Positions 13,140-37,679 are shown, counted from the whole stretch's first letter. The stretch is DNA of 51,668 nt, filler included, from Sphacelaria rigidula (GCA_964200075.2; 3 parts of 3 records of this genome joined end to end with filler, not necessarily neighbours in it), one strand, 5' to 3'. The notes: a model not told the origin generated them from the letters alone. Numbers and translations: made by a program.

Positions 13140-13645
13140 ACATGATTATAAGTTATTATGCAAATGGAAGATAATAAACTATATTTAGCGTTCCAGACAC
13201 GGAAGATGGTGCTGATCGTAAGGTGACAATATCCAAGCGAAGGTGGCTCGGCTGGAGCAAGCGCCGACGCGCCTGTCGTCGAGTGTGGCCATAGAGGGAA
13301 ACATGTCACAAAAGTACTCATATAGTTCAGGCCCAATGTAGACAGTAGAGGTATGGTCATGCAGCAAGATGTCTTGGCAGCACGCGATCTAAAGCTGTAC
13401 TACCGAACGGCAGTAGCACGAGTTGGCCCGCAAGGCGATGGCGCCCCGCCCTGTGTACCGAAGGGTCAGGCAGCACGTCACCGTGCGGTACTGTAGCAGT
13501 AGCCTGATACGGGACTGGTATCATCATGCTCTATGTCGCATACGCAAGTTGCATGCTTCAATGTACAAGATGTGCGTTGCACAGAACGCCGATTTACACT
13601 ACAGAACGGCAGTAGCACCGCTCGACCCGAAAGGCGCCGGCTAAT
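13140..13645 (+). repeat. Dispersed repeat, copy 1
   Basis: TATTTAGCGTT...GGAAGATGGTGCTG...GTGACAATATCCAAGCGA...GCCTGTCGTCGAG is shared with 49690-50345. Confidence 0.85.
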
Positions 13646-14430: not shown

Positions 14431-17169
14431 TGTAGGCAGCGGACCGTCCTTCGTGACATCGTGCTACGATGAAAACGAAGGGCGGTTGATATCAGACATG
14501 GCTTGTACACGTGCGCCATTGCGCCGAACCGGTAACGTAGAGACGCAGAGGTTGAAAAGTGAACGTTCCGAAGAGGAATTGAGCATCGTAGTTGAGGAAT
14601 GAGGCGGCGTGAACAAAAATAAAAAAGGAACAGAGTGGCAGGGTACTGTCGACAGTCGATCGACATGTAGTGCCGCGCACTCCGTCCATGCATGAGGTCT
14701 ACCACCTTGTCAATCAGGTGCAGACAAGAGAGAAAGAAAAACAAATATGCCGAAGGCACACAACAAACCGTAGGGGTGTGTGTGTGTGTGTGTTGGAACA
14801 AATTGTAAGAGCAAGAGAAAATAAAACGAAGATTGTCACAAGCAACAGACATACAGTGTCTGTCACCAGCGCAACAGCGCATTAAGAGACCTGGATGCCA
14901 TGAAGGGATATACGTGTGGGACGCAGCGAACCGCAACGTCAACCACTCAGTTCTGAGGTTGAGAGAAAGAAACACAACTGTCGGATGCCGTATCGTATTT
15001 CCAGAGGCAATATCAGCGCAGCTGGTGATACTCATATAACAGCACCACCTAGTTCACTGAAAATAGCCGAGTTGGAGTCTTGGTGACGTACATCGTACAG
15101 GTCGTTGTTGTTGTCTTCACATTAAGGTCGACACTTAGTAAATGTAAAAACACAACCGGAATACAAATGTGTAGTGCAGTGCAGACAGCAGCGTAAAAAG
15201 CATCAGACAACGAAATGCTGTGTGGCACAGCACAGTACACATGATCTTCACGTGGTCCAGCGGGCGTGGTCGACAGTGCAGTACGATACCAATGTGTTCG
15301 CATCACATGAAAAAAACCCCGACACAACGTTATGCCCGCGCCGTGTTCTGATCTACAATTACAATATAGATGACTTCGTTCAGATAGTGTAGCAGTACCA
15401 ACGCATGCTACAGTACGGCACCTCACCGTCCGCAAGATATTCCCCGCTGGGACCATTTCTAATCGAAACGGTGCCGTACTGTCGTCAGCACTTCAATTCG
15501 GAACAGTATTTCAACGGGAAAAGTGAGTGGCCTTCTGGACGACCAAGTATGTACGGCAGTGCGTGTTGGTGGGGCGGCAATCAAACTCTGCGTACACTGG
15601 TGCCGTGCAAAAGTAACAAGAGTGCAGAGTCGAGCGCTTGTATACAAGTAACATGAGCCTCGCGCATCGCCGTGTTTAATCATGTTCGTGTACAGACAAA
15701 ACATCCTCATCCTGGCCCATCATGCCGCATTGATATAACTCGGTGTGCATGGTGGCTCAACGTTCCGTGTTTGGGCAAGAAAAGTCGTATGTACAGCGGG
15801 CGGCGATTGAAATAGCCCGAGAACTCTATACCTGCAAGCATGAATCGGCGTGTGTTTGGACACATGTCGGTCGGTTCGGTTGATACAGAATCGACGGACT
15901 GTGAGCAGGGGCGCTTGCGGGGGCAGGTGGTCGGGAGGGCGGTGAAAAAGCTAGGGACCCTTGAGGGGCGTATCTAAACAAGGAACGTATGAGCGGTTCA
16001 ATTATCCGAAAACTGCCCGTGGGTGAAAAAAGACACGGCACTTCAGATCGAGTGTGCATGAAAACGCTATGCTATCTCTCTGCAGTGAAAAACGTTGCCA
16101 CAGTCGCTTGGCTTGTACCGTCGATATGACCTGCAGGGTGCGGGGAATATGCTTGTGCAGCAAGAGAGGGTTGACGTGCGCGTTCATACCTGGAGCACCT
16201 CGTGGTTCGGCCGCCACTGCCTGAAACCAACGTGGGCACCGTGTGGCACATCGGAGATCTGCAGCAAACTCGAGTCGGAATGTATGTCCAACTTCGAGTA
16301 AAAGAGGGAACAGCGGTCCAAGACGCTGTCGTATTACCTTGGTGTACTACACCGCTAAATCGTGTACACAAATATCAAGTGAAAATGAAAGACCGAAAAT
16401 ACAGGGCTTGAAAAAAAACCCAACGAAGGGTTGTGGTGGACTGGAATGCGTACAACAGCAGCCCACGGAGAGAAAAACAGTACAGCTTGAGGCCACAAGC
16501 TACCTCTGAAGCCCCATGTGTGGTGGAATAGGCAATTACCACAAGCAGTAGTGCCGTATACCTCGGACGCGAGCAAGCCACACCCTTGTGAGGTGTATGC
16601 CGCGGTCCTGGATTGACTTGTTACACTCAAACTGTATGTTACTCTCCCACAAGGGCAGTCGTCAACAGTAGACAGCTCTAGCTGAAAGTAAGCACTGAGC
16701 TCTTTCTGAAAAGGAAACACCACTGTGATATCAAGGGATTATATTACTTGTGACTTACTCGTCACAGCTTGCCGGCAGAAGGGGAGGCGTCGCGCAGAAC
16801 AGATGAAAGCTGATGGTCCTTCTTGTGAGTAGATCTACGGTAGACCTTTCTCTGACAGGTGGAACGCAAGTGCCTGCATGGGCGATGCGGCACACGATTA
16901 CCCTCAAAACCTCCAAGCTACGCATACAATCTTGTCATATAAATACCACTCCACGTGGCGCACTGTACCCCAAGCCAATCGAAAGCTGTAGTAGCAGAAG
17001 GTACACGCTGCTAATCGGGTACAATCCTTTCACCTTCAACCCGCTGCGACAACAATACAAAGACACATCCGACTAGAATCCTTCCATACCCGCTGGTCGT
17101 TTCTGGGGACCATCTGCATATCCACAAGGAAACTAGTTTTACTTCAGGCCCTCAGTCATTTACCATCAC

Positions 17170-17269
17170 NNNNNNNNNNNNNNNNNNNNNNNNNNNNNNN
17201 NNNNNNNNNNNNNTTAATTAATTAANNNNNNNNNNNNNNNNNNNNNNNNNNNNNNNNNNNNNNNNNNNN
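17170..17269. other. Artificial assembly spacer
   Basis: 100 nt of N with a central TTAATTAATTAA (stops in all frames). Confidence 0.98.
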
Positions 17270-17399
17270 AGGCTCCTCTCTGTGGGGTGATGCAAAGTGC
17301 CCGAGACGTGTGTTGGCGGTTTTCCCTGTGTTGGGGTCAAAAGGTGGGCCAAACGTCCCAAAAGTGAACAACCCGTGGGCCAAAAATCTGTTTGCCATA

Positions 17400-20439: not shown

Positions 20440-21187
20440 AGTTGAGTGGCGCAATGAAGCTTCACAGATTTTGCGAAGAAGAGGTGTGCGATGCATACGT
20501 TTTCACGGAGTTGAACAAGCAAGAAACCAGCTGCGTTCTAGACGTCTTGGATACTTATTTGATTATAGTTTCAGGTATATTGCTCGGCTGTTGCACTCCA
20601 TTTGACGTCTGTGATTTTGCAGGTTTGGAGTCAGGAGACTTGTTTGGGGCATGGGTTTGACAAATTGGGCGTCAATTATTACTCCGTGACTCGGAGCGAT
20701 GCAAGTAGCGTGATGGCGTGTTCATGATGGACGTTTTGGATCTCTTTCGAGTTGTTCGCAAACTGGACACGCTTTTACGGCTGTCATATACTGCGGTAGG
20801 GATTGCCATTCTTTGTGAAAATGACGGTTAACTTCGGCAACAGTGATGTCTACGTTCATCAAGCTCTAGGTTGACTACTTGTTGGTAGTAAGTGAGCTTT
20901 GGGGGTGCACTCCGGGCACTATGGTTACCGTGGTTGGGTACATGACTGCAGTGAAGAAATGCATAGCCGGCGTTTATAGGCTGGTTAATCGATACCGGGT
21001 CTGAAACTATGATCGGTGAACTCCGTGATGTATGATGTTTGCATACAAGATGTGCCGGTCACTCCCGGTTTTAACGAAGACTGCTGTTTCTATAACTGCT
21101 TGAGTCTTGAAGTCTCTGGATCCCGTAACAGGGAGGAAGCCTCCGGAGCAGTACTGTGATCTTGTTCTGGTTTTAGACAAGCCTACA
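20440..21187 (+). repeat. LTR fragment ending ...AAGCCTACA
   Basis: Reverse match to 33410-33900. Its 3' part is duplicated at 21420-21763. Confidence 0.75.
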
Positions 21188-21410
21188 GTTCCCAATCCAC
21201 CGTTGTCAAATGGTAGGTGTGAAAGGATCATGCGAGAGATTATCTGTACTTTGAAGGGCAATACTGCGAGAGGAGAGCCGCGATATCCGTGACTGGGTGG
21301 ACTTGTGCCTGCCGTGCAGTGGGCGTTGAACACGGCATTCCGCGAGTAGTTCGCCAGTACGCCATGCCATGTGATGTTTGGACATGCGCCGCGTACGAAT
21401 GCTTCGATCT
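21188..21410 (+). pseudogene. Gypsy integrase core C-terminal fragment
   Basis: SNGRCERIMREIICTLK...AVQWALNTAFRE*FASTPCHVMFGHAPRT, the typical NGxxER / A.N / TP..FG integrase motifs. Confidence 0.8.
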
Positions 21411-21419
21411 GTAGACTCC

Positions 21420-22617
21420 GGGCAGCAATGATATCTGAGTTTATCAAGCTCTAGGTTGGTAGTAAGCGAGCTTTGGGGGTGCTGTAGACTCCGGGCAACA
21501 TTGTTACCTTGATTCGGTACATGACTTCAGTGGAAAAAATGCATAGCAGGCGGTTATAGGCTTCTCGATGGATAACGGGTCTCAGAGTATGATCGGTGGA
21601 CTCCGTGATGTATGATGTTTGCATACGAGGTGCGTAGGTCACTTCTGCTTTAACGAAGACTGCTGTTTGTATAACTGCTTGAGTCTCGAAGTCTCTGGAG
21701 CCCGTGACAGGGAGGAAACCTCTGGAGCACGGTGACCTCGTTCTGATCCAGGATAAGTCTACAATAAACGTTTATGCAGGAAACTTGTCGGTTCTGGAAA
21801 AGGTTGGTGAAACCATACCCCACGTCTGTAAAACGGGGGACCCTCACGTTGAAAAACAGGGGGGGAGGAAGAGGCGGAGAGAGAGGCGTTGGTCATATAA
21901 GCGAAGACAACTGAAGGGAAGACGCCTTTTGGAATGATGGCAGCGCGCAGGGGGATGGAAGGAGTAGAGCCGAGAAGGTTCTGGGGTAGTGCTAGGGTGC
22001 GCTTTGGTATCGGTTGATCACCAGCTGTTGTCCGGAGAGCCTGCCAAAAGACACGGCGCAATTACTACCTCAGACGGGAGAGTTGTAACAGGGCTGGCTC
22101 AAGGTTAGCCAGCCGCGTTCAAGACGAGGAGTCTAAGGACTTCAAACACGTGGTGAGACCTTCGTGAGGAAGGGGCGCTCACCATTGTCGTTTTGTGGCC
22201 GAGCGCGTCTCGGTGTATGGAAAGTTGTTGTTTCTGTGATTGAGAAACAACCTTGGTTTTTCTTGAACCGCTGTTGAGCTGTTAAGGTGCTGCTTCGTGA
22301 GTGTCCACTATGTACATATATCGTGGTGGCTCGGTGCTTGATGAGAAGCGTGGAGGTAGCGGCAAAAGCCTGTCCGGTTGTTCAAAATGATGAAGTACAG
22401 ACTATGCCATCGTCGATGGTCATGTTGTCCCTGTACTGGCGCTAGAGGTGCCGTACTACTTATTGCAGTTTTTCGAGCGAGAAATCAGCTGAGTTTATAC
22501 GGAAATACGAAAGAAATGTGCGAGATGTAGATCAGGTCAACGCGCGGTGAACAAGCCTCTTTGAGGTGACAGCAGTTTCTGACCTCATGTCGAGACATAT
22601 TGCGATATGTCTGTTTG
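21420..22617 (+). mobile_element. Second B-like copy: LTR end (to 21763), leader and decayed gag-like ORF, cut by an opposite-strand LTR
   Basis: The leader matches the reverse of 31680-31862. 21960-22610 matches the reverse of 26720-27310. Confidence 0.75.
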
Positions 22618-23235
22618 TGTGAACCTGCCTGGAATCAGAACAAGGTTACAGTACTGCTCCAGAGGCTTCCCCCCTGTCACGGGCTCCAGAGACTTCAAGA
22701 CTCAGCAGGTATACAAACGGCAGTCTTCGTTACCCAGAAGTAAGCTTCATGGGCTTTCCCCACCAACACGATATGTTACGCATCCAATAGTCATCCTCAA
22801 ACCAATCAATCCAGGATCCGCCGCATATCTACATGTTGCATGTATACTGTAGGCGGACTACTCTACAGCACCCTCCGAAACTTCGCACTACTCGAACTAG
22901 AAAGCGAATTTGACAATACAGGAGACCGACAGTACCCTACGATGTCAACAAGAGACAAGCATTCAATATCAGACCGCATCAGGTCGAATCACACCCCCAG
23001 TATAATCTTTAAGAACACCAGCACGACCTACTCCAACATGTTAGGCAAACGATAACCAAGCGGTATAATCAACGAACACCGAATTGCATAGTAGAATCTA
23101 TGAAGTACGCCAACAACCAACCACAGCTTGAAACCCAACCAATCAGAGCTTGAGGCCATACTTAGCCAGCAAACGCGCCCGTACCTGCTTTTTAGTCGCA
23201 ACTTACGCAATTTAGACCGCACAAACTGCGGGGCT
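22618..23235 (-). repeat. LTR 3'-end fragment (element A type)
   Basis: TGTGAACCTGCCTGGAATCAGAACAAGGTTACAG...TGTCACGGGCTCCAGAGACTTCAAGACTC is nearly identical to 31863-31990. Confidence 0.75.
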
Positions 23236-25240
23236 TGTAGACTTCTGTCACTCAAGATCAGATTGCCATGTGGACTCCTCCCATCACGGGTACATGGACT
23301 TCAACAGCTTTAGTTATTCACATATTAACGCTCAGCATAGTACAGGAGAACAGGATCATAGCCTCTCTCCACCAGAGTAGCAAAACCGGCTCTACTCGTC
23401 ATGGAGGTCACAATCACAGAGTCCGTCAATCAGACCCACAACTCCACCTACGAAGTCCCTGACCTTAGGTAATAATGGTGGCTAGGTCTACAGCACCCCC
23501 AAAGCTCTCTACTATCAACAAGTAGTTACACCAGAGCTTGATAAACTCAGACGTTATTGGTGCCTGATAGTATCGTCGTTTTCCGCAAAGAATAGCAATC
23601 TCTTCCGCTGCTTTCGACAACAGTTCCATACGAGCTTGCCCCATTCCCGAACAACTCTCAAGAGATCCCAAGAAAATATCGTCCATCATGAACATGAAAT
23701 CACGCTACTTGCACCACTTCGAGTTACAAAGCGATAGCTAGCGCCAAATTTTGAAATCTTTGCCCAAGACAAGTCTCTTGACTCTTTATCGGCACGAAAC
23801 CGGAAATGTCAGCGAACGTCAAAATCCAGAGCATTCGTGACTCATCGTTCCTCTCATCCGAGACAAGATACTTCTCAACATACAAAATGCACTTTTTGTA
23901 CGTTCAACCCCTGTGCGACGGAGTGCAACAGCCAAATGATACATCATCCTCACACTAGAAGGAAGGAAGCACCCAACATGTCTAAAACGCACCTGCCATC
24001 TTGCTTCTGCAACACCGTCAACAACGTATGCATCGCATGCCTCCCTGAAGTCAAAGCTTAAATGCTTCAACTTGCCATTGTTTCATTGGGACAATCAGAG
24101 GAAAGCCATGACTCCAACCGCTATTCAAGTTATGCACACTAATCCAACGACGGCGAACGGACCTCAACCTCCGCCATCATTCATCACCCGTAGTGATATC
24201 GTTCTCAAACTCTAGTTTTCGAGGAAATCCCAGACATTTCGATATCTCGTTTGGATCTTGGACCGTCATATCCCATCCGTGCATCAGCCAAAATGTAGAA
24301 AAAATGATTTCCTCGACACTCTTGCAGTCCACCTGCACCAGTTCTTCCAAATCATCCACATGCTCCTTCTGACATGAACGAAAAACCAACCACGTGCTCG
24401 TTCAAACACGTGACATTCCATACAAAAACATGCCACGGTCAAAGATCATTGATGCATGCGCGCATAATGTCTTTATCTTCAACCACCGGAAGCGCCCGCG
24501 TCATACCTGCTCACATACAACGAGCCTACGCATTTCGTACCTTTCGGCTCATTTTCACGCTAACAGCAGCAATCCATATATCCTGCAGTCAGTACGTGCA
24601 AACCGCACAAATACTATTCGACTGTATTCCTGCGCGAACAAGATTATACGAGCTTCACTTCATTTAGCATACAGCAGCATATTGAAAACTGCCTCACCCT
24701 AGGTCGTCACCAGATATCATTCATATATCAGTACCATTCGAGCAAAAATTCGCACATGCCTGCCAAATTTCCACTCAGTATATGAAAATCCGCACATGCT
24801 TGCCAATATTTCACTCAGCACATGCAATGCCACCTTCCGCGCAGCAAACGCCATGCATCGTCCATGCCAACCACATCAGCACAGCACACACATCCCAAAT
24901 ATCCACGTGTAGGCCAGATTTTTACCCTGCACACGCGATACGATCATACTCGCTCAACAACCATGTTTCATGCGCAAGCATGACCACAAACCACACAATC
25001 ACAAGCTGAAATCATTCTCGAAATGATTCGCGAATACCAGTCATAATGTGTCTCCTCATTCTCAACAAGCACTCCATCACCATAACACTTGCTCCTCAAC
25101 ATCACCACCCAATTCGGCGCTCACAACAACAGCAAACACCTCAGGTAATGCCTGCTTTGTAGTCCTCCAGCCCGCTGAGAAACAGCAGCACTCGAACCAC
25201 AACTCCGTGCACAGCGTGGAGCAGCCTTTCCTCTCGGACA
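23236..25240 (-). repeat. Putative 3' LTR of element B
   Basis: TGT...ACA termini, preceded by a purine-rich tract. Homologous to element A LTR at 33410-34400. The start at 25240 is tentative. Confidence 0.55.
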
Positions 25241-25727
25241 CTCGCCCCTTGCACCTTCAGTCTAGCTACACCTGGCACCCCCATGGTGTAGCTCAACACG
25301 CCTCTAAAAGGTATATTCGCACCGTCAAACCAATGCTACAAATCCTCTGCACCCACAGATGCTTGCGCATTCACAAACGTTCGTTCTTCAGTCGCTTTTA
25401 CAGAAGGAATAAGAGGCGAAACGGGAACATCCATACAGTCCCGCACAGCAAAACCCCCCGATGGCACCACGCCGTCCTCCTCCACGCCATCCTCCTCCAG
25501 CACCTGACCGTACAGCGGCAAAGACACCGCAATCAACACCGCCGAATACGCCAAACCTGTCCATGCATACAGCAGTGCACACGATCACCCCAACACCACG
25601 CGACGCTTGTCGTCACTGTCAGAATAGTGATCGCTAACAACATCACGAGCTTGCAGCTTGCTCTGCGTACCCGCTTCACGCAGGTCACACGCCCCCGTTG
25701 TTTCGATCATGCAAGGCATGTTCACAG

Positions 25728-26966
25728 CTACGCGCTGCTCCGGCGGCAATTCCGCCAACCCGGCACCCACCTGCCGTCAAGCAGACACCCCTGCGAATCG
25801 TCTGACCGATCTCCCGCCATATCACTGGCGCAGATAGATTCACCCTGAGCATCGCAAGCCTCAAGCTTACTCTGCTCACTCTTATCACGAAGATAACACC
25901 ACCTTGCAGCGGTGAGGCCAGGTGTGTCCCCAATCACCCTCTGGTCCGGCGGCCACAAGCAACCTGGACCTTTGCCGCTCAGCGCTAGCTCATCGGAGCA
26001 AATTAGCGTCGCGCTTCCAGCAGCAGCGGCAGCAGCGACTGGATAAAATATTCTCGCTTGAGCCACCACCTCCTGCTCAGCGCACTCCTGAACGGCAACA
26101 GCGGCAGCTGAGCTGCCTGCAGTCTGCTCGAGCTGCGTGGTATATTCACCCTCTCCAACACCAATACCAGCAGCATCCAAACCAATGCTTACCGTGGTAC
26201 TGTAGGCGGGCGCGCTCTCATGCCTACCCGTTTTGACAGACACGTGCTGCGTCTCCTTCCCGCTCTGCACGGTGGAAACAGCTGCCCTGTATCGTGGTTG
26301 AAGACGCGCCCTACCGACTGCACGTTCAACGGGTGCACTATCGCGCCCATCCCCTCGGGTAGACACATGCTTCTTGGCTTTCACAGTGCTAGCATCTGCC
26401 CTGTATCGTTGTTTCAAATGCGCAGCATCTACTGCACGTTCGGCGGGTGCAGTGTCGTCGTGCCTGTCCCCTCGGGCAGACATATGTTTCTCGGCTGTCA
26501 CACGGCAAGCAGCCGCCCTGTATCGTTGTTTCAAACGCGCAGCACCTACTGCACGTTCGGTGGGTGCAGTGTCGTGCCTGTCCCCTCGGGCAGACACATG
26601 TTTCTGGGCTGTCACAGGGCAAGCAGCCCCACCAGACGGCGCATGCTTGCGCAAAACGAAAAGCAACTGCTCGTTCTCAACATGATAGTCATTCAAAAAC
26701 GTGTCACACAGAAATTTTGCAATATGTTTCGGCATGAGCTCAGAAACTGCTGCCACCTCAAAGAGGTTTGTCCACCGCGCGTTCACCTGATCCACATCTC
26801 GCAAAAAATATTGCTCGTGTTTGCGTAAAAGTTCGTCCGATTTCTCGCTCGAAAACTTGCGGCCGTAGTACGACATCTCCAGCGCCAGTACAGGAACAAC
26901 GCGATAATCGACGATGACATATTCCTGCGCCTCATCCATTTCGGTCAGCAGTATAGTACTCCACAC
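25728..26966 (-). CDS. gag-like ORF of element B with an internal repeat tail (probably part of a longer, frameshifted ORF)
   Basis: 412-aa open frame. YGRKFS...ELMPKHIAKFLCDT aligns with YGRVFS...ELEPKHIQNGVFDT of element A gag. Confidence 0.55.
   Translation of the reverse strand: MWSTILLTEMDEAQEYVIVDYRVVPVLALEMSYYGRKFSSEKSDELLRKHEQYFLRDVDQVNARWTNLFEVAAVSELMPKHIAKFLCDTFLNDYHVENEQLLFVLRKHAPSGGAACPVTAQKHVSARGDRHDTAPTERAVGAARLKQRYRAAACRVTAEKHMSARGDRHDDTAPAERAVDAAHLKQRYRADASTVKAKKHVSTRGDGRDSAPVERAVGRARLQPRYRAAVSTVQSGKETQHVSVKTGRHESAPAYSTTVSIGLDAAGIGVGEGEYTTQLEQTAGSSAAAVAVQECAEQEVVAQARIFYPVAAAAAAGSATLICSDELALSGKGPGCLWPPDQRVIGDTPGLTAARWCYLRDKSEQSKLEACDAQGESICASDMAGDRSDDSQGCLLDGRWVPGWRNCRRSSA
26210..26625 (-). 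repeat. About 3.5 tandem ~115-bp units inside the gag-like ORF
   Basis: KHVSARGDRHDTAPxERAVxxAxLxQRYRAA occurs three times, plus a partial unit. Confidence 0.85.
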
Positions 26967-27639
26967 CGCTTTTTTGAAAAACGAAGTCGCCTCCCACTCA
27001 CAGGAACAACAACTCTCTCCTTACACCGAGACGTGCTGTACCACCTTACAACGACAATAGCCACAGCGCCTCTTCCTCACGCAAGTCTCACCACGTGTTT
27101 GAAGTCCTTAAACTCCTCTTCCTGGCCGTACCTGGCCAATCGTGGAACAAGCAACTCTTGCTGGCTCAACCAGGCAGTAATTTCGCCGCTTTTCTGGAAC
27201 GTGCACGGGCTCGCCAGCTGTCGGTCAACCCCCGGCACCTCTCCCACGAGCGATACCACAGCCCACCCTAGCACTGCCTCAGAACCTCCTCGGCTCTACT
27301 TCTCCAACTCCTCGCGATGTTAATACGCCTTGAGCTGGTCTTGTTTGCTGCAAACTGATCGAACCTACAGATTTCTCTATCTTGATGTGTCAGCTGCGTT
27401 TTTAGCGGAGCTACCGCCTCAGCGGACTTAATGAACGTTCATTGTACACTTCTGTCACTCAAGATCAGATCGCCATGTGGACTCCTGCCATCACGGGCAC
27501 ATGGACTTCAGCAGCATTAGTTATTCATATATCAACCCTCAGCATAGTACAGGGGAACAGGACCATAGTCTCTCTCCACCAGAGTAGCAAAAACGGCTCT
27601 ACTCGTCATGCGGACAAGAAACTGAAAGTCACTGCGGAT

Positions 27640-30507
27640 CTGAAGGGTGTCACTAACCCAGACCTCCAGCGGACCCAACGCCTTGCACCGCGCCAACAGA
27701 TGCTGCACCGTCGCTGCAGCTGTACAAGACTCGGTGGGCTCCAACCACGCGAAATTGCACAGATCATCCATCATTAAAAAAATGATTCTGTACCCGTCGC
27801 CTTCATCCAGGCCGCTCTCGCCCAGCGGACCACTCTCGCCAACGTACAGATAATCAAAGTACATCACCTCACCGGGCCATGTGCCGTGCACTGACTCCCC
27901 TAGTGGCCGCGGGACCGTCTCACCCGCTTTCGAGTCCACACAATGCAAGCATTTCCTCACAAAATCTGTCACATGAGCTTCCATCGGAAACCCACAGCAA
28001 TACTCTTGCAGTCGCTGCAGTGTCGCCACAACACCCCACAACACCCCGATGACCCCCCTCCTTCATGTGAGGACACACCATCAATCGTATTTGTAGCTCT
28101 GTTGCGGCGTTATCCACAACACATTCCGCCCTGCCACATGCACGTGAAATAAACCCTCACTGTCTTCCGAAACTCACCCAGCAGCTGCTGCAAAAGTAGG
28201 GGCTCCAGCAACCATCACTCCGAACCCGGCTTGAGCCTGCTCTTGGGCCTCACGAATAGCGTTCGTCGACGGCAGCGTTTCATCAGGCTGACCGCTCGCA
28301 AATATGGTCGCAACACGCACAGACACCGCCGGAACGTTTACCCACCTTGGCAATGAATCTCCCCAGCAGTTGCGCTCACCAGCAATGTGCCTGATGGAGT
28401 AATCGTACTGCCCCAGCACAGTCTTCCATTGCTCGAGCCTCTGGGCAGCAGTCCTAGACACGGATGCAACGCACGCCTCGGGGTTCAAAATGTATGCTAG
28501 GTTACGATAAGCGGTGAAGATATGTACCCCACCCCATAGAAGATATTCCAACCTACGTGAAGTACTTACGATTGCATAGCCTTCCTTGTCCACCGTAGCC
28601 CAACGAACCTGCGCTCCACGGAAAGTTCCGCGAAGAACCCCATCGGCTCATGGCTCATGTTCTCCACCGCCGAGGTACCACCCAGCTCATCCTCCGCCAC
28701 CTGCGTAAGAAAACTCCCCCAGTGGAGATCCGATGCGTCTGGAAACATGAGCACCTCATACCCCTGCTTGGGATATGACAAAGCGACAGCATGCGCCGCC
28801 AAATCTTGCGCCTCGTGCCACGCCTGAGCAGGCCTGGACGTCCATGCCGACTCCTCGATTATCCGGTTTGACGCCACTCGCTTGGTACGGCGCACGTTCC
28901 CCTGCATGTGTTCCTCCAATAATACCTGCAGCGGCTCCACCACTTCCGCCAAACGCGGCAGGGACTTTTTCAGCCAGTTTTCCGCCTGCAGGAACTGCAT
29001 AAACTCGCCTGCTCTGCGCGGGCACCTAAGATTGGCCCAGCCCGCTCAGTCTCTCGCGGTCATGAGCCACTTGACCACCTGAAAAAACCTTTCCGCACCA
29101 CGTGATCTGTGTGTCGTAGAACATGCACTTGTTTGTGCGCAGCCGCGAAAAAAACAGCATCCTCCAAACAGCCCAAACTCTCGTCCAGTGTACACAACAG
29201 ATCATCCTCATCTGTATCCCACCACGAAATATCATCCACCCATACTTTGCACTGAAGTCCGGCCAGTAACCTTGTCATGATGCCTTGAAAATACCCTGTC
29301 GCATTCAATACCCCTTGCGGCACCCGTGTGGGGGTAAACAGATTTTATGGAGTCGCGATCGTGAATAGTTCTTCTGCATCAGCCGCCAACGGCATCTGCC
29401 AGTAACCCTGCAGCATATCAATCATGCCAAAACACGCAGCGCCTAGCAGTTCGATCATCTCCGCCTCGTGGTTAGGCATAACATCCGGAACCTCCTCAAT
29501 CTGCTTGTTTGCCGCGCGATAATCACTCATCCTTCTTCGGCGTCGCCATGGCCGCAGTCGCCCACACTGCCTGTAAGCTGCGGAATACGAGCCTAAGCAC
29601 CACCAGCGTCGCCACATACCCTGCTAACCATGCGGCCTTTACAGGGGAACAAACCCCGCGGGCTCACCTTGACTGCTGCAGCCCCAGGTTTGAATCTCAC
29701 TCTCAATGACTCTACACGAGCAGGCGGATCACCACGCAATGCTCGCCGAAAAGGGTTGACACGTTGTCCAACAACCTCCCGAAGCTTATCAACGTCGCTC
29801 GCCGACATCCCCTTGTCTGCAGCCGCGTATACTGCATGATCCAATGCAACACGACGCTCTGCCAGCTCCTCCTCTGGAGTCATGTTCATCTCGGGACAAC
29901 GTGACATCAATCGCTCAACGGAAAGATTCGCAGGCTTCTCTTGTTCACCTGGATCCCGTAACGCCTCAATCGCAATACTCACACGCCTACATTCTCGGAA
30001 TTCAGGTGTATCTAACTGTACACCTCTCACCAACGCGTGTCTTGAGCGAGCGCATGCGTCCAGCCCGCTGTACACGTCAATGTCCATGGCCTCCAGCGTA
30101 CCGCTCCCGATGATCACCACACCATCGCCACCTGGCATGACCGCATAATGACTCGGATCCAACACCACCGGCCCCCAGCTGGTGTGCAGAGCGGTGCGCA
30201 CCAGGCGCGGCTTTGACTGCATACTCCGTACATTACCATCAGCTAGTTTCGCCGGGTGTGCACGAGCCATGCTCGTGACAACTGACACATCAGGGAACAC
30301 TGCTTGCAACTGGGCCGCCACTTTTTCAGACATGATAGTGATGCCAGCCCCCGAATCCAACACGGTAGTAACAGGGTAAACGTTTTTGGCTGCGGAAGCA
30401 GGAACGGACAAGTCTGCCCGGCAGCATCGCTGCTTGCGGTCAACTACCACACCCTCAGCCTGTAAATTTGCAACCTCAGCGGTGTGCAGACCCCTCCGTA
30501 TGGGCAA
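27640..30507 (-). pseudogene. pol: pol of element A (aspartic protease, RT, RNase H, integrase; multiple frameshifts)
   Basis: Protease VLDSGA; RT DYRAANK, IDMLQGYWQ, PQGVLNATGYFQ, VWVDD; RNase H FPDASD, DKEGYAIV, HIAGERNCWGD; integrase HMKEGGHRG...CLHC, YFDYLYVG, VWVSDT. Confidence 0.92.
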
Positions 30508-30759
30508 TGTGTGAGAAGTCCACTCCTGAGCCGGCCCCGCCGGCAGTTAGGGTTGAGCTGCAGGAGCTGGAGTGGAAGGCTGGGGCGGCACCATGCTATC
30601 CGCACTACTAGCATCCCTTTGCGTTTCATCTCCTGGGAAAACAGCCCGTGTGGGAGCAGGACCTTTACAACCCCCCCGCGCTGACCATGGACCTTTTGTT
30701 GCTGCTGCTGCTGCTGCGGCGACGGCGGCGGCGGCGACGACTTTGCTCGCTCACCTGAC

Positions 30760-31684
30760 GCACTCACCGCGGCCGCAGGTGTGCTCTGTTTGTTACAGTC
30801 CTTCTTGTAGTGGGCCCCTTATCCCTACACTCGAAACAACCTGCATAGCTCGGACCAGGTTTGTGGGGCTTTTCCAAGCTCTTACCACCACTACCCGCTA
30901 CGGCGGCCGCAGCCGCTGCGGCGGCATGCGATGTCAGTTTTTCCAAGCCTTGTGAGCCGCGTGTTTGGTTCAGTTGCGGTTGCTGGCGGCGGTGTTTGTC
31001 AACCTCCTCAACAGTGTTCCATTTTCCCGCCAAGTCATGAGCTACCAAATAAACCACTCTCGGGCTCTCTTTTCAGTCCCTTTTCATATAGAGTATACTT
31101 TGAACGTTATTCTTGAACTCAGGTGGGGTCAGGCCGGCGAACATAGCTCTGGTAATAATGTGTGCTGGATCAGCCTTGAACTTACGGTCAGATTCAAGGA
31201 AAACGCACTCCGCACCTGCATTTTGCGCAAAGTACTCCTGAATGAACTCCATTGCCCTTTTTTTCGACCCATTGCAGTTGGTTCAGACTGTGCGGCAAGG
31301 ATCTTTTTCACGCCTGCTGCACCTTTGGAAGGGTCAATTTCCATATCGATCCAGCATTTCGCGTGGCATGCAAATTCCTTGCTGCAATTCGTCTCCGTTG
31401 AGTGGCAACCCGTCAAAGATGGTATCAAACACGCCGTTCTGGATGTGCTTGGGCTCCAACTCTTGCATGATCAAGAGGGCACACTTAACCGACCGGCCTT
31501 TGTTACTTTTCCCCACTGCCTTCTCATATTCTTGATACCGTTGGTCAAAGCGTCTGAAAGCTTGCTCACTGAATACTCGCCCATATTCGGGCACTTTCGA
31601 CGATCCACCCAATGTCAATTCGGTTACTGCTAAATCCACCTCATCAACCGTCTCGCTGGTGCCCCCTTCCCTTCGCGTTGCCAT
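30760..31684 (-). pseudogene. gag: gag of element A (frameshifted)
   Basis: ORF pieces MATRREGG...YGRVFSEQAF...ELEPKHIQ, and a degenerate zinc knuckle CFECRDKG...HLRP, lying upstream of the protease. Confidence 0.7.
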
Positions 31685-31862
31685 CCTTCCAACAGCCTCC
31701 TGCCACCGCAGTCGCCTTCGATTCGTGCGGCCTGCGCCTCTCTCTCCGCCGCTTTCTCCCCCTTCTGTTATTCAACGTGAGCGTCCTCACGTTCTACAAA
31801 CGGTCGTGTGCGACGTCAAAAATCTAATCCAGAAACGACAAGTTTCCTGAACAAACGCTTAT

Positions 31863-34420
31863 TGTGAACCTGTCTGGAATCAGAACAAGGTTACAGTGCT
31901 ACCTCAGAGGTTTCCTCCCTGTCACGGGCTCCAGAGACTTCAAGACTCAATCAGTTATACAAACAGCAGTCTTTCGTTGACCAGACGTGACACTTCTTTG
32001 CTTCCCTCACAAAGACAATATGTTACGTATTTGATAATTATCCTCCAAACCGTTGTCACACGATCCAAACTGATATCCATATGCTACCGTACTCCTCATG
32101 CTAGAGGTGCTACTGTACTTTATCTACACCATGTTTTGGCCGGTCAATATATATCGGATATTATAAGTATGGTGTACGCTGTAAGGAAGATCCAGAGACG
32201 CGATGGATGCCGGAGCCCGTGCAAGTTGGGAAAAGATTCAAATGGAGTCGCAGATGTACGAGTGCATTACTTCGAAGAGTTGTCGAATGCAATTGACATA
32301 TATGTATATATATGTATATACTGGTCAGAATATATGGTGACAGAAGAGGCGACCCGGTATATATGCATCCTTATATCCATCTCGCCACCGATATGGGGCC
32401 GCCCATCTCCTTCTCAGGATGTCATCAATATATCTTGGCTGAACATTTCGATGAAACAAAACGCGGGTCGATATGCGCGTTTTGGTACCCCTGTGGTCAC
32501 CGGGATTGTGTTGCTCATACCCCGGACAATACAATATGTTCCAATATGATACCAATACTTTGTATCGGAGCCAGCGCAAATATTGTCCTTTCAAAATATA
32601 TTATGTTAAGATGTCCTCGGAGACATTGAGGCAACAACATATATTGCTCGTGTCATGATCATGAAGTAATGGATGACAATATGTATTGGACACGCATTTT
32701 TTCCGAGAATAAAACATTCAATATTTATTGTGCATGCCAAGCGTCAATATATACTGAGTCGAAGCGATGCGTAGCATATGGTTATCATAATATATATTGA
32801 AACGCAAACCATGCAAAACTATTGTTTTTCCATTATATATTGCGCACGCTCATCGCATAGCTATTCTGCAGCCAAAATGTTTTGAAGACGCTTGCGGAGG
32901 AATATATTGAGCGTTTTTGAATGGCGCCCGCGAACATAAAACTGCCGATCATACTAATTTCAATATAATTTCCCATCTACATGTTAAAAATCAAAATATA
33001 TTGCCACACCAATATGTATTGTGACCGCCGGTTCCCTCGTGTTTTTTCCGGTCAATACATATTGGACAAATTGACGCACGACATATTGGGGCGGCAATAT
33101 ATATATATATATATACTGGAGCTTCGGGTGTTGAGTATATTGAATCATCAATATATATTGACCTCGTGTGGCAGCTAGTTTATCACTCGCACCAACATGT
33201 TGCTCGGTCAATATTTATCGAGGCGGCGCCTGTCGTGGTATATTGTTCAGTCGATATATATTGCATGTCGCGAGCCTTGACATATTGATTGCACAGTATA
33301 TATTGACCCTCTCTCGTGCCATTATATTGCTCACCCAAGATATATCGACAACCCAACCCGTCGACATATTGAACGGGCAATATATTTACATATTGTATTG
33401 TCCAGGGTGCGCAATTTTCACAAGGAGTGGCGATTCCTACCGCAGTATACGATAACGGCCATACAACTTTGTCCAATTTCCGAACAACTCGCAAGAGATC
33501 CAAAACGGCCATCATGAACACGCAATCACGCTTCTTGCGCCGCTCCGAGTCACGGAGCGATAGCTGACGCCGAATTCTCAAACCCATGCCCCAAACAAGT
33601 CTCCTGACTCCAAACCGGCGAAGAAAATCTTGAACGTCAACGAACGTAAAATTCTAAAGTCATCGTGACAATTCGTCCCTCGCATGCGATGCCGTTCAAC
33701 ATACAAATTCCTCTTTGGTACGTTTAACACCTGCGCATAGGAGTGCAACAGCCGAGTAATATACCTGAAACTAGAATCAAATAAGTATCCAACACGTCTG
33801 GCACGCAGCTGTGTTCTTCCTTGTCCAACTTCGTGAAAAGTTATGCCTCGCACACTTCTTCTTCGTGGAAGCTTCAAAGCTTCATTGTGCCACTCAATAC
33901 ATGAGCAAACTGAAAAAAAAACTCGAATCGCTTTTCAAGCCATGTATACCAATCTAACAACGATGTACGGATCTCGGCCTCCGCCATCATTGATCACCCG
34001 TAGTGATATCGTTCTCAAACTCGTTTTGACCGAGTACACCCAAGAAAGCACCCAGATAGGATATCCCAACTTGGATTCAGGACCGTGATATCCCATCGGT
34101 CGATTAACCAAGATATGAAATGCACTTCATCTCACAACAGACTTGCAGCTCACCTGCACCGCTTCCTTAGACAAATAGACACTTCATCCACGTGATCCTT
34201 CCAGACGGAAATGAAACATTCCCGCAAAGACATTCTATAGCTGAAGCTCAATCATCTTCAACCACAAGCAACACTCGTGTTTTCCTCGCGCACATACGAG
34301 CCTACGCTATCGTAGTTACTGCTCATTTCAACGCCAACAGCAGCAATCACCATCTCCTACAGTCAGTGCCCACAAACCGCACGAAGAGAACTCCGCCGCG
34401 TGTCTGTGTGGGTAGGAATG
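31863..34420 (-). repeat. 5' LTR of element A (interrupted by an AT-rich insertion at about 32140-33407)
   Basis: Ends ...CAGGTTCACA at 31863 in element orientation. Homologous to 22618-22810, 23540-24610 and the reverse of 20440-21187. Confidence 0.7.
32520..33407. mobile_element. AT-rich TIR element (MITE-like) inserted in the element A LTR
   Basis: TIRs CCCCGGACAATACAATATG / CATATTGTATTGTCCAGGG. The interior is packed with ATATATTG/CAATATAT motifs, and similar motifs extend left to about 32140. Confidence 0.65.
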
Positions 34421-34520
34421 NNNNNNNNNNNNNNNNNNNNNNNNNNNNNNNNNNNNNNNNNNNNTTAATTAATTAANNNNNNNNNNNNNNNNNNNNNNNN
34501 NNNNNNNNNNNNNNNNNNNN
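34421..34520. other. Artificial assembly spacer
   Basis: Same 100-nt N-TTAATTAATTAA-N linker. Confidence 0.98.
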
Positions 34521-35258
34521 AGGTCATCCCCATTTGCATATTTATTCGGGATATCCCCAGCACATAGGAATAGTAATCTTGGCGTACTCTTGCACATTTT
34601 TATAAGTCGTGTTTTGGATGAGATAGGGGGCTCCTAACAATTTTAATCTCAGAAATTATTTCTTTACCCCTACCGTAGCATCACTCTCCTACCAATCGGG
34701 AAATTGTCCAACGAAGCCGAAGCCGAAGCGAATTGCAATGTCGTTCACTGAGATCTCATAGAGTCCAACAGACCCTTCGTGCAGCAGCGATGTGAACGCT
34801 AGTCATACTCCTGCCTATGCCCTCTTCCGCATGCCTCGGCATCTGTTTAAGGCGTGATGAATGATCCAAACGCTATTACACGAAACGGATTACTTGCCCC
34901 TACGGATGAGCAGTTTTCCAGAGGACAAGTGGTCGACGACGCCATCACTGAAACGAAACAAACAGGTACTAGCAGCGCTTTCGTGAGAATGCCCACCATG
35001 AAGTCCCGGAGAAAATACGTGGTGAAATAGGCCAAGAACGAAAGCACGAAAAATCACAAAAAAATCAACGCTTAAATTGTTCGATGAAAAGTCGCAACAC
35101 CAGTTTTGTAGGCACAGCCCCGTCTTTTCCCTCAAACATTTCAACAACAATCCGCTCACGCATGTGTCGATAGCAGCAGTTTCCAATAAGGGGACCGACC
35201 TGCCGACCCTTGCCGGACCCCTCCCGGGAAAGGTCGCATTGCGACAATAGGGGCAATC

Positions 35259-37679
35259 CTATGGTGCAGGTTTCGAGAGTTGTACTTCCAACTTCACGGC
35301 TTCTTCATATTCTTCGGTGTCCATACTATTCGCTGGAACGACTTGTCTCCACGTCACCGATGGCGTCGTGCGAGGTCGCTTCGCCCTTTTGCTACTAGAA
35401 CTAGAACTACACTCGCTACTGCACGCACCAACCGCTGCCGCTGCTCTCGCACGCGTTCTCCCAGCAACTCTCGTCTCGTCCACACAACTTGTAGCAGGGG
35501 TGACATTGAGCTCCACCTTAGGGCACATGTTGGCCCCTTCCATATCACCCTGGACCACCGCGGTGGGTTTTGCGAACCCCGACGACGGTGCGTAACAACT
35601 CTGCACAGCACCATCGGGAACTATACACCGGCGATATATGCCACAATCGTCTTTCCCGCTGCTCTCTAAGTCGCATGCTGTGCTTTTAGCGTCGACCATC
35701 CCCTCTCTGGAATACTCTGCGCCGCAGTCGGCTTTAGTACCGTCTACCACGCCGAACGAAGTCACTGAAGAGCGGACTTCGCTAACGCACAATCTTGTCA
35801 CGTCGGCCATCTCTTCTGCGGCATGACTGACGCAGATATGTTTTTTGCCTTTGACGTCGGTCAACCCCTCTCTGTCATTACTGGCGCAGATTTCGGGCTT
35901 CCTGCTGCCTGCTATGCCGTACGATGGCTGTGTGGAGCAGTCGTCGTTGCCACACACGTTGCTTTTAACGTAGACCATCCCCTCTCTGGCATGACTGGCG
36001 CAGAATTCGGGCTTCCTGCTGCCCCCCGCGCCGAACGACGGTATCTTCGAACAGCCGTCGTGGCCGCACACTTTGCTTATTACGTCTACCATCCCCTCTT
36101 TCGCATGGCTGGCGCAGAATTCGGCTTTCCTGCTGCCCGCTATGCCGTACGATGGCTGTGTGGAACAACCCTTCCTGCCGCACGCTTTGCTTCTAACGTA
36201 GACCATTCCCTCTCTCGCATGACTGACGCAGAACTCGGCCTTTCTGCTACCCCCCACGCCATACGATGGTATCTTCGAGCAGCCGTCGTGGCCGCACACC
36301 TTGCTTCTGACGTTTATCATCCCCTCTCTGGCATGACCGGCGCAGAACTCGGCCTTCCTGCTGCCCGCTATGCCGTACGACGGCTGCGTGAAGCAGCCGT
36401 CTTTGCCGCACACTTTACCTATGACGTAAATCATCCCCTCTCTGGCATGACTGACGCAGAATTCGGCCTTCCTGCTGCCGGCTATGCCATACGACGGCCG
36501 CTTAGAGCAGCCATTGTTGTGACACACTTTGCTCACTACGTCTATCATCCCCTCTCTCGCATGCTGGGCGCAGAACTCGGCCTTCCTCTTGCCCGGCACG
36601 CCGTACGACGGCTGCGTGAAGCAGCCGTCCTTCCCGCACACTTTACCTATGACGTAAACCATCCCCTCTCTGGTATGACTGGCGCAGAATTCGGCCTTCT
36701 TGCTGCCCACTATGCCGTGCGACGGCCGCTTAGAGCAGCCGTTGTGGCCGCACACGTTTTTCACCAAGTTCACCATGTTCCCTCTTGCATGACTGGCGCA
36801 GAATTCGGCCTTCCTGCTGCCCCGCACGCCGTACGACGGCTGTGTGGAGCAGCCGTTCTCGCCGCACATTTTTTGTTTCACGTTCACCATCCCCTCTCTG
36901 GCATGACCGGCGCAGAATTCGGCCTTCCCGCTGCCCGCTATGCCGTACGACGGCCGCTTCGAGCAGGCCTTCTTGCCGCACACCTTGTTTTTGACGTTTA
37001 CCATCCCCTCTCTCGCATGTCCGGCACAAAACTCGGCATTCCTGCTATCCCCCATGCCGTACGACGGTATCTTCGAGCAGCCGTCGTGGCCGCACACTTT
37101 GCTTTTGACGTAAACCATCTCCTCTCTGGCATGCGTGGCGCAGAATTCGGCCTCAGTGCTGCCCGGCACGCCGCGCGACGGCTGTATGGAGCAGCCGTCG
37201 ATACTGCACACTTTTTGTTTCACTTGAAGCGTTCTCGCTCTGGCATGACCGACGCAGAAGTCGGCCTTCCTGTTGCCCGACACGCCGTGCGACGGCTGTT
37301 TGAAGCAGTCGTTGTTGCCGCACACGTTGCTGTTGACGTCTATCATGCCCTCTCTCGCATGGCCGGCACAAACTTCGGCCTTCCTGCTGCCCGCTATGCC
37401 GTATGGCGGCTGTGTGGAGCAGTCGTTGTTGCCGCACACTTCGCTTTTGACGTTCACCACTCCCTCTCTGGCATGCATGGCGCAGAACTCGGCTTTACTG
37501 CTGCCCGCCATGCCGCACGACGGCCGTATGGAGCAGCCGTTTCTGCCGCACACTTTGCTCGTTACATTCATTATCCCCTCTCTTGCATGCTTCGCGCAGA
37601 ATACGCCGTTTCTACTGCCATCAACGCCGTTTAAGACCCTTGATGTGCACGCTGCATGGGCGCAAACTCGACGACCCAT
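35259..37679 (-). CDS. EsV-1-7 cysteine-rich repeat protein (16 tandem 38-aa C-x4-C-x16-C-x2-H repeats plus a low-complexity C-terminal tail)
   Basis: Uninterrupted 806-aa ORF. Repeat consensus CGxxGCSxxPSYGxxGSRKAEFCAxHAREGMVxVxSKV matches the EsV-1-7 repeat known from Ectocarpus IMM-type proteins and EsV-1 virus. Basic KRAKRPR motif near the C-terminus. A splice acceptor (tttgtag) lies just upstream of the ATG. Confidence 0.9.
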   Translation of the reverse strand: MGRRVCAHAACTSRVLNGVDGSRNGVFCAKHAREGIMNVTSKVCGRNGCSIRPSCGMAGSSKAEFCAMHAREGVVNVKSEVCGNNDCSTQPPYGIAGSRKAEVCAGHAREGMIDVNSNVCGNNDCFKQPSHGVSGNRKADFCVGHARARTLQVKQKVCSIDGCSIQPSRGVPGSTEAEFCATHAREEMVYVKSKVCGHDGCSKIPSYGMGDSRNAEFCAGHAREGMVNVKNKVCGKKACSKRPSYGIAGSGKAEFCAGHAREGMVNVKQKMCGENGCSTQPSYGVRGSRKAEFCASHARGNMVNLVKNVCGHNGCSKRPSHGIVGSKKAEFCASHTREGMVYVIGKVCGKDGCFTQPSYGVPGKRKAEFCAQHAREGMIDVVSKVCHNNGCSKRPSYGIAGSRKAEFCVSHAREGMIYVIGKVCGKDGCFTQPSYGIAGSRKAEFCAGHAREGMINVRSKVCGHDGCSKIPSYGVGGSRKAEFCVSHAREGMVYVRSKACGRKGCSTQPSYGIAGSRKAEFCASHAKEGMVDVISKVCGHDGCSKIPSFGAGGSRKPEFCASHAREGMVYVKSNVCGNDDCSTQPSYGIAGSRKPEICASNDREGLTDVKGKKHICVSHAAEEMADVTRLCVSEVRSSVTSFGVVDGTKADCGAEYSREGMVDAKSTACDLESSGKDDCGIYRRCIVPDGAVQSCYAPSSGFAKPTAVVQGDMEGANMCPKVELNVTPATSCVDETRVAGRTRARAAAAVGACSSECSSSSSSKRAKRPRTTPSVTWRQVVPANSMDTEEYEEAVKLEVQLSKPAP
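35841..37664 (-). repeat. Coding tandem array, 16 x 114 bp
   Basis: 16 in-frame 38-codon units counted in the translation, followed by 1-2 degenerate units. Confidence 0.9.

Follow-up and report, generated by a model that had tools for sequence, protein, structure and literature searches.

A self-complementary 12-mer at the primer-binding-site position of brown-algal Ty3/Gypsy elements: a candidate for priming without a tRNA

To our knowledge, the priming of LTR elements without a tRNA site is known for Tf1 only, and no model has been put forward since 2017 for the palindromic site of the GalEa elements. These fungal Copia elements have no tRNA primer-binding site (PBS) and carry a conserved palindrome, the "Conserved Hairpin Site", right after the 5' LTR (PMC5445492). 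Among the Ty3/Gypsy elements, the self-priming group comprises Tf1/sushi and, in plants, the Tcn1 and TAR lineages (PMC6317226). Here we describe a window, i.e., the whole analyzed stretch of 51,668 nucleotides of Sphacelaria rigidula DNA, in which three copies of a brown-algal Gypsy family carry a self-complementary 12-mer at the PBS position.

By analogy, the closest precedent is the Conserved Hairpin Site of GalEa. Both systems lack a tRNA-type PBS and have a short conserved palindrome that abuts the 5' LTR, both show variants that differ by substitutions at symmetric positions, both have short LTRs (235 bp on average in GalEa, ~226-281 bp here), and a priming model is established for neither (PMC5445492). 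In contrast, GalEa belongs to Copia and to fungal hosts, whereas the present family is of the Gypsy type (PR-RT-RH-IN) and resides in a brown alga; the GalEa site includes the terminal A of the LTR and 9 further nt, as opposed to 12 nt that begin only behind the LTR, and no counterpart was found here of the second complementary sequence, CHSeq2, located 12-41 bp downstream in GalEa (PMC5445492). With Tf1/sushi the family shares the Gypsy type without a tRNA PBS, a primer from its own RNA, which is only proposed here, and a duplex of ~11-12 bp (PMC6317226, PMC5445492). However, the Tf1 PBS, as described there, complements the first bases of the transcript and is not palindromic, whereas no such complement better than with shuffled sequence was found in the present LTRs and the present site is self-complementary (PMC5445492). 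Retroviral dimerization and PBS palindromes, exemplified by MMTV, likewise place self-complementary leader sequence in a predicted stem closed by U5 and leader, but there the palindromes occur alongside a tRNA PBS and here the palindrome stands in its place (PMC8096270). Some chromatin-reader Gypsy lineages of Ectocarpus resemble the family in their short LTRs, e.g., 261 bp, and in similar proteins and domains, and the Ectocarpus chromodomain lineages are unrelated to chromoviruses (PMC12477816). The terms PBS, primer and tRNA have zero mentions each in the text and readable supplements of that study, TE library FASTA files excluded (PMC12477816).

The elements in the window are assigned to Ty3/Gypsy by their gene order. 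In a tblastn search with the Ectocarpus polyprotein P0005, residues 15-1336 were collinear with 31621-27646 on the minus strand in the order gag-PR-RT-RNase H-IN, and a Pfam scan of the ORFs in the window yielded PR, RNase H and the zinc domain of integrase. An Ectocarpus polyprotein is among the most similar proteins (44-50% identity), the window has a brown-algal appearance, and the domain set comprises CCHC, PR, RT, RNase H and IN, plus sub-threshold Chromo or Tudor matches. Chromo matches occurred in two of the four relatives scanned, with 23.1 and 23.3 bits below the cut-off of 25.1, and the window copies end before the integrase C-terminus, where a chromodomain would lie. Direct LTRs with TG...CA termini (TGTAGAC...GTCTACA) were found, their target site duplications being unconfirmed in this nested region, and purine-rich tracts lie before LTRs B and Y3 (TTTGGGGGTGC) and before LTR C (GGAGGGTGC). 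LTRs of ~1.2 kb were considered and replaced by the short ones after TGTAG starts had been found behind the G-tract.

The copies are nested and decayed (Table 1): the pol region of X lies in several frames, B ends at 22617, and Y is without pol. LTR B has a double role as the 3' LTR of a truncated upstream element and the 5' LTR of a downstream leader/gag fragment, and contig joints at 21482/21484 agree with its start. A match to P0004 residues 23-108 was located in element Y at 26900-26640, and no pol was detected in its internal part (23493..27430), so that Y is a non-autonomous gag-only derivative. The brown-algal family probably consists of autonomous B/X-type copies and this Y-type derivative. 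We rejected the reading that LTR Y5 is an entire "middle" LTR and has a PPT of its own, since the integrase homology reaches 27646 and the similarity to Y3 stops at 27610.

Table 1. Nested Gypsy-type elements and their LTR-leader junctions, in coordinates of the window
Feature	Position	Strand	Remarks
LTR A	20909..21187	+	3'/solo-type; first 5 nt (TGTAG) missing; ends CCTACA (21187); unrelated DNA next, no 12-mer
Integrase C-terminal fragment of a 5'-truncated element upstream of LTR B	21185..21406	+	59% identity to Ectocarpus polyprotein P0005 residues 1359-1432
LTR B	21483..21763	+	281 bp; TGTAGAC...GTCTACA; ends TCTACA (21763); G-rich PPT-like tract TTTGGGGGTGC just before
12-mer ATAAACGTTTAT of copy B	21764..21775	+	PBS position, directly after LTR B; perfect palindrome
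Copy B leader and gag N-terminal fragment	21776..22617	+	leader ~170 nt, first ATG 21934; cut at 22617 by inverted LTR C
LTR C	22618..22867	-	B/X5 type; ends TTCACA (22618); then copy B gag in opposite orientation; no 12-mer
LTR Y3, 3' LTR of gag-only element Y	23236..23492	-	TTTGGGGGTGC before; ends TCTACA (23236); no 12-mer after
Element Y internal part	23493..27430	-	leader and 430-aa gag-like ORF (25731-27020) with 117-nt tandem repeats
12-mer ATGAACGTTCAT of Y5	27431..27442	-	directly after LTR Y5; perfect palindrome; positions 3 and 10 differ from copy B, differences complementary
LTR Y5	27443..27610	-	ends TGTACA (27443); 3' 168-169 nt 92% identical to Y3; 5' part lost against element X integrase
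Element X coding region	27646..31684	-	gag, protease, RT, RNase H, integrase; several frames; matches P0005 residues 15-1336
12-mer ATAAGCGTTTGT of X5	31851..31862	-	directly after LTR X5; RNA self-complementary only with two G:U pairs
LTR X5, 5' LTR of element X	31863..32128	-	ends TTCACA (31863); 31863-32051 83% identical to LTR C; 5' boundary near 32128 uncertain

The shared terminus (T/C)ACA that a preliminary description had assigned to six LTR ends was recovered at all six positions, and in their alignment the similarity runs to ACA and is lost beyond. As that description had also claimed, the 12-mer follows at offset 0 in all three LTR ends that enter leader/gag and in none of the other three (0/3), the B and Y5 versions are perfect palindromes that differ by a compensatory A-T to G-C swap (positions 3/10), and the X5 version is fully paired as RNA through G:U. 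The 12-mer is thereby confirmed as a genuine element at the PBS position with a putative role in priming, as judged from junctions of three copies that are all degenerate or truncated, plus one extra contig. A degenerate 12-mer pattern gave five matches in the window, representing the three sites since the two perfect palindromes match on both strands and are counted twice, against 0.14 expected, and none of 100 shuffles reached five. With up to two mismatches allowed there were again five matches against 1.49 expected (1/100 shuffles reached five), and the whole window contains 162 perfect 12-nt palindromes; the signal therefore lies in the fixed position and the paired change, not in palindromy as such.

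Between copies B and Y5, 10/12 bases of the 12-mer are kept vs. 24/51 in the next 45 nt, which is the background level, and the leader of this gag-only sub-family is otherwise unalignable to that of copy B. The swap at positions 3/10 retains self-complementarity; it is the one compensatory event seen, for which we estimate a chance of ~3% given two substitutions. The 12-mer of X5 also shares 10/12 bases with B, vs. 34/47 upstream and 32/45 downstream, i.e., it is conserved no better than its flanks, and its two G:U-compatible changes may thus be mere decay.

The hallmark of tRNA-primed elements, a TGG-starting complement of a tRNA 3' end near the 5' LTR, was absent: copies B and X5 have their first TGG after the LTR at +32, and in Y5 the first 120 nt contain none, so the earlier observation that no TGG follows the LTR holds for the 31 nt after each motif-bearing end. 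ARAGORN found zero tRNA genes and the Rfam scan zero families at the gathering threshold in the window, and on inspection the reverse complements of the 12-mers gave no consistent anticodon loop with U33 that would fit a half-tRNA. In the reverse transcription of LTR elements, the end of U5 is fixed by where the extension of the primer begins, and integrase trims a few bases at most. If this standard mechanism applies, the 3' end of the primer must anneal on the 12-mer, since the minus-strand start sets the U5 end.

Each of the three 12-mers is predicted to form a fully paired 12-bp RNA homodimer (-10.1, -14.7 and -10.1 kcal/mol), while the monomer hairpin is not stable (0.0 each); -8 kcal/mol was reached by 4.9% of 2000 shuffled 12-mers in which the composition was kept. 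In minimum free energy folds the 12-mer is inside a U5-leader pairing in 3/3 copies, but these folds do not exceed shuffles in stability (z = 0.47, 0.21 and -1.29) and the three-way consensus fold is weak (-3.92 kcal/mol), so this stem adds no independent support. A Tf1-like complement of the 12-mer better than with shuffled LTRs was not found in the LTRs of the three copies, where the best duplexes of -5.1, -7.8 and -5.8 kcal/mol were matched by 0.71, 0.42 and 0.97 of shuffled LTRs. Tf1/sushi-style priming from the transcript 5' end, which the preliminary description had cited as known background, is not supported by this result. The initial proposal itself, tRNA-free priming through dimerization or self-priming at the palindrome, is supported in part, by the PBS position, the missing TGG, the paired swap and the stable homodimers. 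A CHSeq2-like partner was likewise not detected in the leaders, where the best duplexes were weak (-6.2 to -8.4 kcal/mol) and lay at the non-homologous positions +120, +153 and +55.

We tentatively suggest, as a possibility still short of even chances, that the 12-mer is the PBS equivalent of this brown-algal Ty3/Gypsy family and that priming would be dimer-based and in trans. Two genomic RNAs would pair via the palindrome, and the resulting 12-bp duplex would be the dimer linkage. One strand would then be cleaved at the 3' edge of the duplex by a hypothetical nuclease step, and its 3'-OH could start minus-strand strong-stop synthesis with the partner RNA as template, i.e., a Tf1-like self-priming, but in trans. 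As such a primer would be inherited with the element, a change on one side would have had to be matched on the other. A bolder version, which we consider rather doubtful, is that reverse transcription in this lineage starts from an inter-RNA palindrome duplex of co-packaged genomes, the dimerization site being the priming site, and that the autonomous and gag-only sub-families keep separate partners by means of different palindromes.

The argument from position would be equally valid for any primer, and the primer might be some host RNA, not a tRNA 3' end but, e.g., a tRNA fragment or small RNA with the 3' end ...AACGUUUAU, with the palindromy being incidental. Half-tRNA primers are known from 2% of the surveyed plant elements (PMC6317226), and by our reading a primer that fits copy B would pair with Y5 with only a single mismatch and a single wobble over the 12 positions. 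However, a fixed host primer should homogenize the site and not permit a symmetric double change, and inspection of the reverse complements with their flanks shows that B, X5 and Y5 would each imply a different, malformed anticodon loop. Since tRNA stems need loops, a perfect 12-nt palindrome is impossible within one tRNA arm, and we regard a host-RNA primer as unlikely. The homodimer stability and the location within the U5-leader pairing would also suit a mere dimerization or packaging signal beside U5, with priming by another, unrecognized route. Retroviral PBS regions hold palindromes and bind Gag, yet in MMTV the PBS palindromes are dispensable for dimerization (PMC8096270). The U5 boundary moreover demands a primer that anneals no more than a few bases from the LTR end, where nothing else is conserved and no TGG occurs before +32, which makes a signal of this kind distinctly improbable.

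At the DNA level, a dimeric host factor might bind the 12-mer as a palindromic site that has an ACGT core and acts as a leader enhancer: perfect DNA palindromy around the core AACGTT is seen in two of the three motifs, and the 3/10 swap keeps the DNA symmetry too. A transcription-factor site, however, needs no invariant offset 0 from the LTR end, X5 keeps neither the ACGT core nor the DNA symmetry, and the unit in the extra contig is a hairpin-type repeat instead of a DNA palindrome, so that we see hardly any room for this explanation. The start of a conserved leader could also be palindromic by chance, in copies that are simply dead, given the single compensatory event, the 162 palindromes and the loose matches (5 vs. 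1.49 expected). Against this stand the survival of the 12-mer where the rest of the Y leader is unalignable, the exact symmetry of the double change and the unrelated self-complementary unit at the same place in another contig; chance palindromy therefore appears very unlikely to us.

With this family, a second, unrelated lineage (Gypsy and not Copia, a stramenopile and not a fungus) has a palindrome at the same position as GalEa, which points to convergence on a real mechanism or else to an ancient one that has been overlooked. If dimer-based priming is true, it would be a third priming mode of LTR elements beside tRNA and Tf1-type cis self-priming and could explain the GalEa site. LTR-element finders that rely on the PBS would overlook or mis-score such families.

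Searches of viral, metagenome and genome contigs gave zero matches to a 24-25-nt LTR-core pattern chosen independently of the 12-mer and zero confirmed loci with a PR-region protein alignment with six relatives. An antisense ORF across the copy-B junction, used with the aim of finding the motifs of other copies, had zero matches in the protein collection. None of the best 40 of 446 variant rows fell within 21749-21805, which does not by itself establish family-wide conservation of the 12-mer. A 283-nt contig from sequencing run X3 shows 0 differences from 21700-21982, and the junction of copy B is hence no assembly artefact of the window. In an extra contig, present in runs X1, X2 and X3, LTR sequence is connected to gag by an LTR-end-like string followed by TAAGCG-TATG-CGCTTA, a self-complementary unit different from the 12-mer. 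Sequencing depth just behind the LTR is as high in the runs as at the LTR end, the depth in run X1 being 9918 in bin 21760-21799, 9891 in the preceding bin and 1361 in the following one. The family is of high copy number, with 332-1193 contigs placed per sequencing run, and hundreds of copies in the sequenced host would make a covariation test feasible with an assembly.

Three of the six LTRs in the window run directly into a self-complementary 12-mer in the position of a primer-binding site (PBS). The LTR ends located in the preliminary description are all real (see the table), with termini of the form (T/C)ACA. The LTRs are short (~226-281 bp) and start with TGTAGAC; immediately upstream stands a G-tract, which reads TTTGGGGGTGC at B and Y3 and GGAGGGTGC at C. 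In public sequencing runs two contig joints fall at 21482 and 21484, in agreement with LTR B starting at 21483, and a 25-nt LTR core occurs 4 times in the window with <=3 mismatches versus 0 expected. As originally described, the motif stands immediately after the LTR where leader and gag follow, i.e., ATAAACGTTTAT in B (plus strand), ATGAACGTTCAT in Y5 of the gag-only element Y and ATAAGCGTTTGT in X5 of the pol-bearing element X, and it is missing from ends A, C and Y3, which pass into unrelated DNA. The absence of a TGG after the LTR was likewise borne out: B and X5 have none earlier than +32, and Y5 has none within 120 nt. A 283-nt contig of run X3 is identical to 21700-21982 with zero differences.

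LTR ends and coding regions of the retrotransposon copies
Feature	Position	Match to Ectocarpus polyprotein P0005	Basis
LTR A, end	21187		verified
LTR B, end	21763		verified
LTR C, end	22618		verified
LTR Y3, end	23236		verified
LTR Y5, end	27443		verified
LTR X5, end	31863		verified
Element X, gag	within 31621-27646 (-)	residues 15-231	protein homology
Element X, protease	within 31621-27646 (-)	residues 387-675	protein homology
Element X, RT + RNase H	within 31621-27646 (-)	residues 715-1023	protein homology
Element X, integrase	within 31621-27646 (-)	residues 1006-1336	protein homology

A degenerate pattern of the 12-mer has 5 matches in the window against 0.14 expected, a count reached by 0/100 shuffles; looser matching is not special (5 versus 1.49 expected, reached by 1/100 shuffles). 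Since such loose matches are unremarkable and perfect 12-nt palindromes are common in the window (162), the weight of the 12-mer lies in its fixed offset from the LTR and its pattern of change, not in palindromy as such. The Y5 LTR end is identical to that of B at 30/50 positions, and similarity in the 45 nt downstream of its motif does not exceed background (24/51), whereas the motif itself keeps 10/12 bases. The two bases that differ (positions 3 and 10) are mutually complementary, which upholds the compensatory swap proposed earlier. We estimate the chance of a complementary pair, given two substitutions in 12 positions, at ~3%, as the second change has a 1 in 11 chance of striking the partner position and a 1 in 3 chance of bringing in the matching base. 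The X5 motif also keeps 10/12 bases of B, against 34/47 and 32/45 in its flanks, and adds little to the case for conservation. Its two A-to-G changes are wobble-compatible, as by our estimate a random transition pair would be 1 time in 4; in agreement with the suggestion that this motif stays paired as RNA through G:U, its 12-bp homodimer is predicted to be fully paired. A further contig, found in three runs, connects LTR sequence at 21614 with gag at 21988 and carries an LTR-end-like string and then, where the 12-mer would stand, another self-complementary unit, TAAGCG-TATG-CGCTTA. One compensatory event and this extra contig suggest that the self-complementarity is probably under selection. 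None of the 40 variants listed, of 446 in the public runs, falls in 21749-21805, a weak indication that the motif of copy B is the majority form in the family.

The predicted homodimers of B, Y5 and X5, fully paired over 12 bp, have energies of -10.1, -14.7 and -10.1 kcal/mol, and the monomers alone form no stable hairpin (0.0 kcal/mol each). Only 4.9% of shuffled 12-mers of equal composition reach -8. In the minimum free energy folds of all three copies the U5 3' end pairs with the leader and so encloses the motif. Because these folds are no better than those of shuffles (z = 0.47, 0.21 and -1.29) and the consensus fold of the three copies together is weak, at -3.92 kcal/mol with compensatory changes in 3/23 pairs, we regard the modelled U5-leader pairing as only compatible with the proposed reading of the 12-mer.

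In all LTR elements with a well-understood replication cycle, the U5 3' end is set where synthesis begins on the primer, at the first base joined to it, and integrase trims at most a few bases. The primer of this family should therefore anneal on the 12-mer, which very probably is the equivalent of a primer site here, working without a tRNA 3' end. The missing TGG rules out a tRNA 3' end, and a Tf1-type primer made of the first transcript bases is unsupported, as fractions of 0.71, 0.42 and 0.97 of shuffled LTRs did as well as the real LTR in its best duplex with the motif. The original idea of tRNA-free priming is thus retained as regards the lacking TGG site and the stable predicted homodimers, but not as regards Tf1-type priming.

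Among partners encoded by the element, this leaves the motif itself on a second RNA, and for this reason we favor, by inference, the dimer duplex as the primer source. Two genomic RNAs would form a dimer through a 12-mer duplex, one strand of which would be cut to supply the primer. Rival readings are that a host RNA primes at the 12-mer, that the 12-mer serves purely for dimerisation or packaging, on which the homodimer energies also bear, that it is a DNA-level binding site, or that its palindromy is due to chance, for which the abundance of 12-nt palindromes is to be set beside the fixed offset and the paired change at positions 3 and 10.

The closest known parallel is the Conserved Hairpin Site of the fungal GalEa Copia elements, which have no tRNA PBS and carry a conserved palindrome straight after the 5' LTR; its variants lie at symmetric positions, and a model was described as yet to be proposed (PMC5445492). 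The site has also been cited in connection with bivalve TRIMs (PMC6934838). A GalEa-like second motif downstream of the 12-mer was not found in the leader. Among plant elements, 6% have no recognisable PBS, and those of the Tcn1 and TAR types are predicted to prime themselves (PMC6317226). A survey of Ectocarpus transposable elements describes Gypsy lineages with chromatin-reader domains, stated to be unrelated to chromoviruses, and its text and readable supplements do not mention the PBS (PMC12477816). For Ectocarpus Gypsy families it gives target-site duplications of 4 bp. In the full texts accessible to us we found no report of a palindromic motif at the PBS position in Gypsy elements or brown algae. 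The 12-mer is thus a variant of a known oddity, now in another superfamily and host lineage.

The copies form a nest of decayed LTR retrotransposons at ~20.3-32.2 kb. P0005 is collinear with element X in several frames, Pfam detects protease, RNase H and integrase zinc domains in X, and the family's relatives contain CCHC, RVT_1, RNase H and rve domains, with Chromo matches slightly below threshold; on these grounds we assign the family with the 12-mer to Ty3/Gypsy with the standard gene order. The relatives nearest in the protease region of X are 44-50% identical; among them is a protein of 1649 aa from Ectocarpus sp. CCAP 1310/34. These matches and an ORF of EsV-1-7 repeats (below) give the window a brown-algal appearance. 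Element Y (23493-27430, minus strand) contains a 430-aa ORF with 117-nt tandem repeats at 26276-26628, whose N-terminus is homologous to the gag of P0004. No pol was detected in it, and we class it as a gag-only, non-autonomous derivative resembling the TR-GAG elements known from plants. Around LTR B (segment 21185-21775, plus strand), a fragment of the integrase C-terminus and a G-tract lie upstream, and the 12-mer followed by leader and gag lies downstream, so that two tandem elements share this one LTR. Since the integrase fragment reaches only residue 1432 of the relative with 1649 aa, it lacks the chromodomain part. The family is high-copy, with 332-1193 matching contigs per public run; depth in run X1 is 9918 in bin 21760-21799 versus 1361 in the next bin, at a single-copy depth of ~65-85 as judged from the listed long pieces.

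A purine-rich tract ~90 nt into the leader is kept between B (21853-21888, plus) and X5 (~31735-31770, minus) and may be a Gag-binding/packaging element or an internal polypurine tract. A motif ending in ATCAAGCT recurs ~35-45 nt upstream of 3' LTRs (20852-20865 and 21437-21450, plus; 23535-23548, minus). In copy A it begins with ACGTTCAT, the last 8 nt of the Y5 12-mer and therefore complementary to its first 8 nt, and the other two read GAGTTTAT; a 5'-3' contact is one possibility. Two 8-nt-repeat arrays (17162-17280 and 34413-34531), 17 kb apart and 100% complementary over 100 nt, flank the whole nest. Beyond it lie a weak reverse-transcriptase fragment of a different retroelement (41293-41679, plus; RVT_1, E = 4.5e-4) and a separate repeat family, a ~500-bp direct repeat at 13128-13641 and 49665-50183 (84-86% identical, 36.5 kb apart). 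An 807-aa ORF at 35259-37682 (minus; 35262-37682 without the stop codon), whose DNA repeats a 114-nt unit in tandem in 15 copies, is made up of 16 EsV-1-7 cysteine-rich repeats (Pfam E = 1.5e-216) and is a repeat protein of the brown-alga/phaeovirus type.
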